Assembly: GCF_044324785.1 (NCBI RefSeq)
Contig: NZ_CP172127.1
Strand: one strand, 5' to 3'
Source: Escherichia coli
Lineage (GTDB): Bacteria; Pseudomonadota; Gammaproteobacteria; Enterobacterales; Enterobacteriaceae
Length of the DNA: 64,000 nt
Shown here: positions 20,999 to 21,036 of the stretch, piece after piece
How the letters are laid out: the number at the start of each line of letters is the position of its first letter
Numbering within the stretch: position 1 is the first letter of the stretch
Position numbers and translations under genes: made by a program
The notes under the pieces: generated by a model
Seen by the model: the letters and a program-made list of their open reading frames with translations, nothing else
Told to the model about the DNA's origin: nothing
The model's database searches: none

Positions 20999-21036
20999 AA
21001 CTGTCGATACGTACAGTATAGGATTTTTATACAGTG
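20999..21036 (-). promoter_or_regulatory. two adjacent LexA (SOS) boxes upstream of ydjM
   Basis: Minus-strand reading: CACTGTATAAAAATCCTATA (21036..21017) and TACTGTACGTATCGACAGTT (21018..20999); the second is a canonical CTG-N10-CAG box; both match the boxes reported for ydjM. Confidence 0.85.

Follow-up and report, generated by a model that had tools for sequence, protein, structure and literature searches.

The best overall explanation for the two abutting LexA boxes that precede ydjM in the stretch of Escherichia coli DNA analysed here (64,000 nucleotides; hereafter the window), and one that we hold to be very probable, is that they are the two published LexA operators of this SOS gene and that they are likely to lie on its core promoter. 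The tandem operators are already known, and their observation in this strain is correct and ordinary. The ydjM LexA operators of K-12 are credited to Fernandez de Henestrosa et al. (2000) and Courcelle et al. (2001). The tandem LexA-binding sites of E. coli ydjM were experimentally reported by Fernandez de Henestrosa in 2000, according to the passage that cites this work in PMC4951493, and the sequence of the second box is printed as the LexA site for b1728 (ydjM) in PMC4576408. A 2019 review of the SOS response (PMC6590174) places the gene, described as an “inner membrane protein”, under “Known SOS box”. For box 1 a heterology index of 9.0 has been published, and the same paper reports that ydjM is induced 2.5-fold in RNA-seq by the replication inhibitor azidothymidine (AZT) and that, after AZT, the dependence of its expression on LexA cleavage is 8.6-fold, by comparison with lexA3 (PMC11228462). 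Induction is also seen in a multi-omics time course, with log2 values of up to 2.6 (PMC11002266), and a YdjM homologue in Staphylococcus aureus is likewise LexA-regulated. LexA binding and LexA-dependent induction at this locus rest on this literature. The first-pass annotation had called ydjM an under-studied SOS gene. The operators are not a new lead: LexA dependence has been measured and the tandem sites are, as that same passage has it, on record since 2000; because the operator pair is already known, nothing is added to the LexA regulon.

The gene itself (20394..20984, minus strand) encodes a protein of 196 aa that belongs to Pfam family PF04307 (YdjM) and to the NCBIfam equivalog NF008651, “metal-dependent hydrolase”. 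Direct reading of both strands shows that the minus strand leads into ydjM with ...CCGTG CACTGTATAAAAATCCTATACTGTACGTATCGACAGTT TAGTGAGTTTTATC ATG ACG GCG GAA... We took as a LexA operator a 20-nt site with a CTGT-N8-ACAG core and close to TACTG(TA)5CAGTA. Box 1, TACTGTACGTATCGACAGTT (20999..21018, minus strand), carries exactly this canonical core. Box 2, CACTGTATAAAAATCCTATA (21017..21036, minus strand), combines a good left half (CTGTAT) and an A/T-rich centre with a right half, CCTATA, that is without CAG, CCTA replacing the ACAG of the core. The boxes overlap by the 2 nt TA at 21018-21017, which gives a centre-to-centre spacing of 18 bp, and they end 14 nt (box 1) and 32 nt (box 2) upstream of the ydjM ATG. 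This direct reading reproduces the coordinates and sequences given by the first-pass annotation and its distance of “about 15 nt” to the start codon, which is 14 nt.

The bare core is not significant by itself, because its single match in the window compares with 0.48 expected and at least one match occurred in 37 of 100 shuffles. The full-length sites were scored with a 20-nt matrix of position weights derived from 27 literature-reported E. coli LexA sites, none of them from ydjM. Over the 63,981 positions of the window, box 1 scores 15.8 (rank 2) and box 2 scores 11.7 (rank 4); rank 1 is the cho box, itself among the 27 sites from which the matrix was built. On a score in the style of the heterology index, box 1 reaches 9.3 and box 2 reaches 10.8, just above the range of 1.2-9.4 spanned by the 27 reference sites. 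Shuffling the 60 nt that precede box 1 produced a site as good as box 2, at an offset of 15-22 nt, in only 39 of 200,000 trials. Sequence, matrix and the conservation described below agree with the original description of the locus as one canonical and one half-degenerate LexA box, abutting and with a TA in common.

The other high-scoring sites in the window are observations in their own right. The top match, CACTGGATAGATAACCAGCA (7926..7907, minus strand), precedes by 13 nt the GTG at 7893 with which a 295-aa ORF (7006-7893) begins. It is the known SOS box of cho (ydjQ), and the window therefore contains two classical SOS genes. The third-best score (11.7) belongs to TACTGGAGAAACAACCCGCA (47251-47270), inside a 566-aa ORF at 46504-48204, and is probably a chance match. 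So, probably, is CACTGGATAGATTATTAGCA (22545-22564, minus strand; matrix score 8.7), which agrees with the cho LexA box in 17 of 20 bases and falls within the 3' end of the yniA CDS (...SLDRLLAA*).

The window represents one more E. coli strain whose ydjM operator is no different from that of K-12: K-12 MG1655, in which ydjM is annotated at 1810211-1810801 as 196 aa starting at the ATG, shows no differences from the window across both boxes through the start codon. With an 81-nt query, 3583 of 5422 complete E. coli genomes were identical and the others differed at no more than 7 positions. One of these 5422 genomes, E. coli NIPH17_0036 (NZ_AP024561.1, 96436-96809), has a 7-bp deletion (AAATCCT) in box 2 that takes out the right half of the box and the bases preceding TATACT; the deletion may be a natural variant of the operator or promoter, or else an error of assembly. 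The gene body behaves otherwise. Across ydjM and its spacer (20380-21160), only 108 of 5423 E. coli genomes have at least 99% identity to the window, the rest lying at 95-99%, so that the coding region is unusually polymorphic within E. coli but the operator is not. In earlier phylogenomic work ydjM had been picked out for its discordant phylogeny in B2 strains.

For a comparison beyond the species we assembled 80 Enterobacteriaceae loci with at least 85% protein identity, from one scan of species-representative genomes, and added four by exact protein look-up (Klebsiella, Shimwellia, Pantoea and Erwinia); together with the window these 84 fetched loci make 85. Box 1 is present in all 85, with its CTG and ACAG invariant. 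Box 2 is found at the exact 18-nt offset in 81, and its CTGT half, with the A/T-rich centre typical of LexA sites, is retained in 82. The CTGT half has been lost in Citrobacter amalonaticus S646 (locus L013) and in Intestinirhabdus (L025), and box 2 carries a 1-nt insertion in one Leclercia locus (L062) and a 1-nt deletion in the Pantoea locus (L085). Nearly all columns from about 21070 to 20999 have a major-allele frequency of at least 0.9; by comparison, 35 four-fold degenerate sites of the ydjM CDS, taken as a neutral reference, have a mean major-allele frequency of 0.55, and none of them is invariant. At greater distance, a metagenomic ortholog with 62% identity (L090) has a single site resembling box 1, 19 nt before its ATG, and no box 2. 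No LexA box was found in five distant YdjM homologues (L091-L095; 37-54% identity), four of which come from low-GC genomes.

The same loci settle the start codon. The ATG at 20982..20984 (minus strand) is the start annotated in RefSeq and in K-12, and together with the MTAEGH that it opens it is invariant in 85 of 85 loci. The alternative GTG, four codons upstream, is a possible start codon in only 49 of the 85: the codon at this position is GTG in 28, TTG in 18, ATG in 3 and a non-start codon in 36, and in several genera the distance from box 1 to the ATG is altered by insertions or deletions. The NCBIfam equivalog alignment pairs YdjM residues 1-195 with model positions 1-195, and homologous proteins are mostly 195-196 aa long. 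In E. coli the GTG (20996-20994) more probably belongs to a weak Shine-Dalgarno-like GTGAG (20992..20996, minus strand), 7 nt before the ATG, which is replaced by TGGG or CGGG in other genera. Comparative data thus identify ATG 20984 as the real start of ydjM, and it is conservation that favours it over the GTG. The first-pass annotation had chosen the same codon and called on the proximity of the boxes in its support; annotation, protein-family model and invariance uphold the choice, but not that argument, because the position of the boxes cannot by itself discriminate ATG from GTG.

The gene order at the locus, on the minus strand, is hxpB (yniC), ydjM, tcyP (ydjN). The intergenic spacer upstream of ydjM, in which both boxes lie, is 162 nt long and has the hxpB terminator at its boundary, a hairpin (21114..21145, minus strand) with a 13-pair stem, 8 of the pairs G-C, followed by a T-rich tail, which sets the upstream bound of the ydjM promoter region. 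In an RNA-seq compendium both the hxpB-ydjM and the ydjM-tcyP pairs were scored as not co-transcribed (PMC10392735), from which it follows that ydjM has its own promoter. No Rfam RNA family was found within 20300-21900. In L083, L085 and most other loci outside Escherichia (and Shimwellia), the place of hxpB is taken by a short-chain dehydrogenase gene whose end is about 90 nt from the ydjM ATG. The upstream neighbour thus differs between genera, while ydjM stays paired with tcyP and keeps its operator block.

Where within this region transcription begins is suggested by a single element. The octamer CCTATACT, formed by positions 15-20 of box 2 and the first bases of box 1, is the sole sequence beyond box 1 that is invariant in all 85 loci, including the two that have lost the CTGT half of box 2 (L013 and L025), and its TATACT is also kept in L090. 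Positions 17-18 of box 2 are T and A where the LexA consensus has A and G, so LexA recognition does not explain their invariance. That of the octamer as a whole is explained if it contains a promoter element, because TATACT with a C at -13 fits a -10 hexamer. The predicted -10, TATACT (21015..21020, minus strand), straddles the box junction and matches TATAAT at 5 of 6 positions; 17 nt upstream of it lies a predicted weak -35, TTCCGT (21038..21043, minus strand), with 2 of 6 matches to TTGACA. CTTCCG is nearly invariant in Enterobacteriaceae and is not retained in Erwinia or Pantoea. Promoters of the sigma-S type have the -10 consensus CTATACT, with C at -13, and CTATACT stands at the predicted -10 position, where CCTATACT is invariant in 85 of 85 loci. 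The invariant, non-consensus right half of box 2 may therefore double as a sigma-S-style -10, with LexA and RNA polymerase competing for the same bases. A full-text literature search for ydjM together with RpoS returned papers with neither term in the title or abstract.

The consensus scan for sigma-70 promoters returned none at threshold, and our own enumeration gave only weak pairs, matching at most 7 of 12 hexamer positions; the candidate pairs downstream of the hxpB terminator region all put the start at 21024-21008, inside the operators. Two other candidates were set aside. A promoter with -35 GTTACA, a 17-nt spacer and -10 CACTGT/TACTGT has its -10 destroyed in L013, L025 and L090, all of which keep TATACT, and a -10 reading of AAAAAT (21028-21023) holds for E. 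coli alone, AAAAAC standing there in other genera. No ydjM start-site entry was found, by gene name or by K-12 coordinates (18101xx), in the supplements of PMC7815308, PMC10301672, PMC4782308 and PMC6131387, and PMC10392735 yielded operon calls alone.

From the sequence and its conservation we infer a promoter, a start site and a mode of repression as follows. In undamaged cells LexA dimers would sit on both ydjM boxes, the weak box 2 probably being filled with help from the strong box 1, by analogy with colicin operators. The predicted promoter would consist of the -35 TTCCGT, the 17-nt spacer and the -10 TATACT, with a start near 21008, which would place box 2 at about -28 to -9 and box 1 at about -10 to +10. 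LexA would then keep RNA polymerase off the promoter and would not block an elongating polymerase. After DNA damage, RecA-stimulated cleavage of LexA would free the promoter, and a monocistronic ydjM mRNA with a leader of about 24 nt would be translated from ATG 20984. Since TATACT lies at the box junction, the boxes would be on the core promoter and not downstream of it, which points to occlusion; we regard occlusion of the ydjM promoter by LexA as a reasonably likely mechanism.

The first-pass annotation had instead pictured the operators as a roadblock. On this account the ydjM promoter would lie upstream of both boxes and LexA would stop the elongating RNA polymerase, an example being CTGAAT (21107-21102) and ATTAAT (21084-21079) separated by 17 nt, which would put the start near 21072 and LexA at about +37 to +74. 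Genomic SELEX with RpoD holoenzyme did place a “constitutive promoter” in the yniC-ydjM spacer, for which CTGAAA-17-ATTAAT was proposed (PMC3946193); the proposed hexamers correspond, but for one base, to 21107..21079 here, about 60 nt upstream of the promoter predicted above, and near the boxes no promoter reaches the consensus-scan threshold. SELEX resolution, however, is far coarser than a hexamer, ATTAAT does not have the A at -11, the second position of the -10, that is nearly essential, the proposed -35 falls in the T-tail of the hxpB terminator, and conservation of the 21107..21079 stretch does not reach beyond Escherichia. Klebsiella and most other genera, moreover, have a different gene that ends about 90 nt before the ydjM ATG, so that a promoter shared among them has to lie within the conserved block beside or inside the boxes. 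With the invariant CCTATACT read as a -10 and the boxes on the core promoter, the roadblock is not favoured, and we consider it quite unlikely. The probability left over after occlusion and the roadblock falls to start sites at other places in the operators, and with these too the boxes would overlap the core promoter. The very short leader proposed alongside the roadblock is plausible, given the length of about 24 nt expected from the predicted promoter.

A different objection concerns box 2 itself, which might be conserved as a promoter (spacer and -10) with an incidental or marginal CTGT, leaving box 1 as the only functional LexA operator. Its right half, CCTATA, is without CAG, and a -10 hexamer accounts better for the invariance of this half; L013 and L025 have lost box 2, and in L062 and L085 its spacing differs by 1 nt; the ortholog with 62% identity retains box 1 and is without box 2; and one E. 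coli strain carries the 7-bp deletion inside it. These observations have to be set against a CTGT half with an A/T-rich centre in 82 of 85 loci, a matrix rank of 4 among 63,981 positions, and a score of 10.8 that compares with 9.3 for box 1 and with a published index of 12.85 for box 2 of Salmonella (PMC8072944), as well as against the description of the tandem sites as experimentally reported in the relevant passage of PMC4951493. We give the idea of a single functional operator little credence. Less still, and indeed hardly any, is due to the notion that the resemblance to LexA boxes arose by chance: a bare core is expected 0.48 times in 64 kb, but the full-length matrix rank, the position before a gene, the cross-family conservation and the published LexA dependence together refute it.

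Likeness to other LexA operators is closest at the gene itself. The K-12 operators occupy the same locus and are identical through both boxes to the ATG, with no difference. Two further comparisons are with the tandem operators of colicin genes and of lexA. The centres of colicin boxes are about 15 bp from each other, and the boxes lie just past the -10; the lexA boxes, both with two usable half-sites, are about 21 bp apart on the same helix face. The ydjM boxes, at 18 bp, fit neither type of tandem; they differ from colicin operators also in that the box junction appears to be the predicted -10 itself, and from those of lexA in that box 2 has just one good half-site. [quoted passage not shown] Similar to the colicin arrangement, ydjM has adjacent, overlapping boxes, one strong and one weak (2-nt overlap; scores 15.8 and 11.7), and on this analogy we assume cooperativity between the ydjM boxes. 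In Salmonella enterica, ydjM (STM14_1605) has two SOS boxes 14 and 32 nt from its start, with heterology indices of 9.12 and 12.85 (PMC8072944); the distances are those of E. coli, and the boxes, TACTGTATGAATTGACAGTT and TACTGTATAAAAACCCTATA, differ by a few base changes in their centres.

Conservation does not stop at the boxes. The block AAAGAGTTACACCGTCACCnCTTCCG, upstream of box 2, is conserved to a degree equal to that of the boxes and holds the near-palindrome GTTACACCGTCAC (21047..21059, minus strand), of the form GTTAC-N3-GT(C/A)AC. All 90 fetched loci in which ydjM has a LexA box (L001-L090) contain this motif, and the five divergent loci that have no such box (L091-L095) do not. In 84 of 85 loci it lies 39 nt upstream of TATACT, and in Pantoea the 1-nt deletion in box 2 is compensated by an extra base upstream. 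Seven loci have the perfect palindrome GTTAC-N3-GTAAC. The window contains two matches to GTTAC-N3-GT(C/A)AC, against 0.15 expected, the other one lying at 33155, inside a CDS. On the predicted ydjM promoter the centre of the near-palindrome would be near -45, and its form resembles the site of a dimeric regulator, so that it could mark a candidate second regulator of ydjM. GntR/IdnR operators follow GTTAC-N2-GTAAC, and this identity for the palindrome was rejected on one different spacer base; a CRP-like reading of the upstream block, TGTGA-N-TTACA, was rejected on its wrong spacing and the absence of TGTGA in E. coli. No match of the near-palindrome to a known factor was found. That the ydjM control region holds more than two LexA boxes, in the form of the dual-use -10, the palindrome of a second regulator, or both, is a possibility we put forward tentatively and on balance doubt.

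No sequence relative of YdjM with a solved structure was found in the PDB, and the literature agrees with the first-pass annotation that the protein is without an assigned function. Among sequence matches to it is a predicted 7287-aa protein (P0121) with 105 separate stretches that match approximately residues 34-78 of YdjM (E = 1.6e-177), which is an odd giant protein of repeats unless it is an artefact of assembly or gene calling.

What is new here is a fixed arrangement of two boxes, down to the non-canonical half of box 2, throughout Enterobacteriaceae and in Erwinia as well; comparison across loci also decides the start codon, and the near-palindrome beside the operators hints at extra control of ydjM. 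YdjM (PF04307) is among the few classical SOS genes that have no assigned function, and knowing how it is expressed could help in the design of experiments to find its role.
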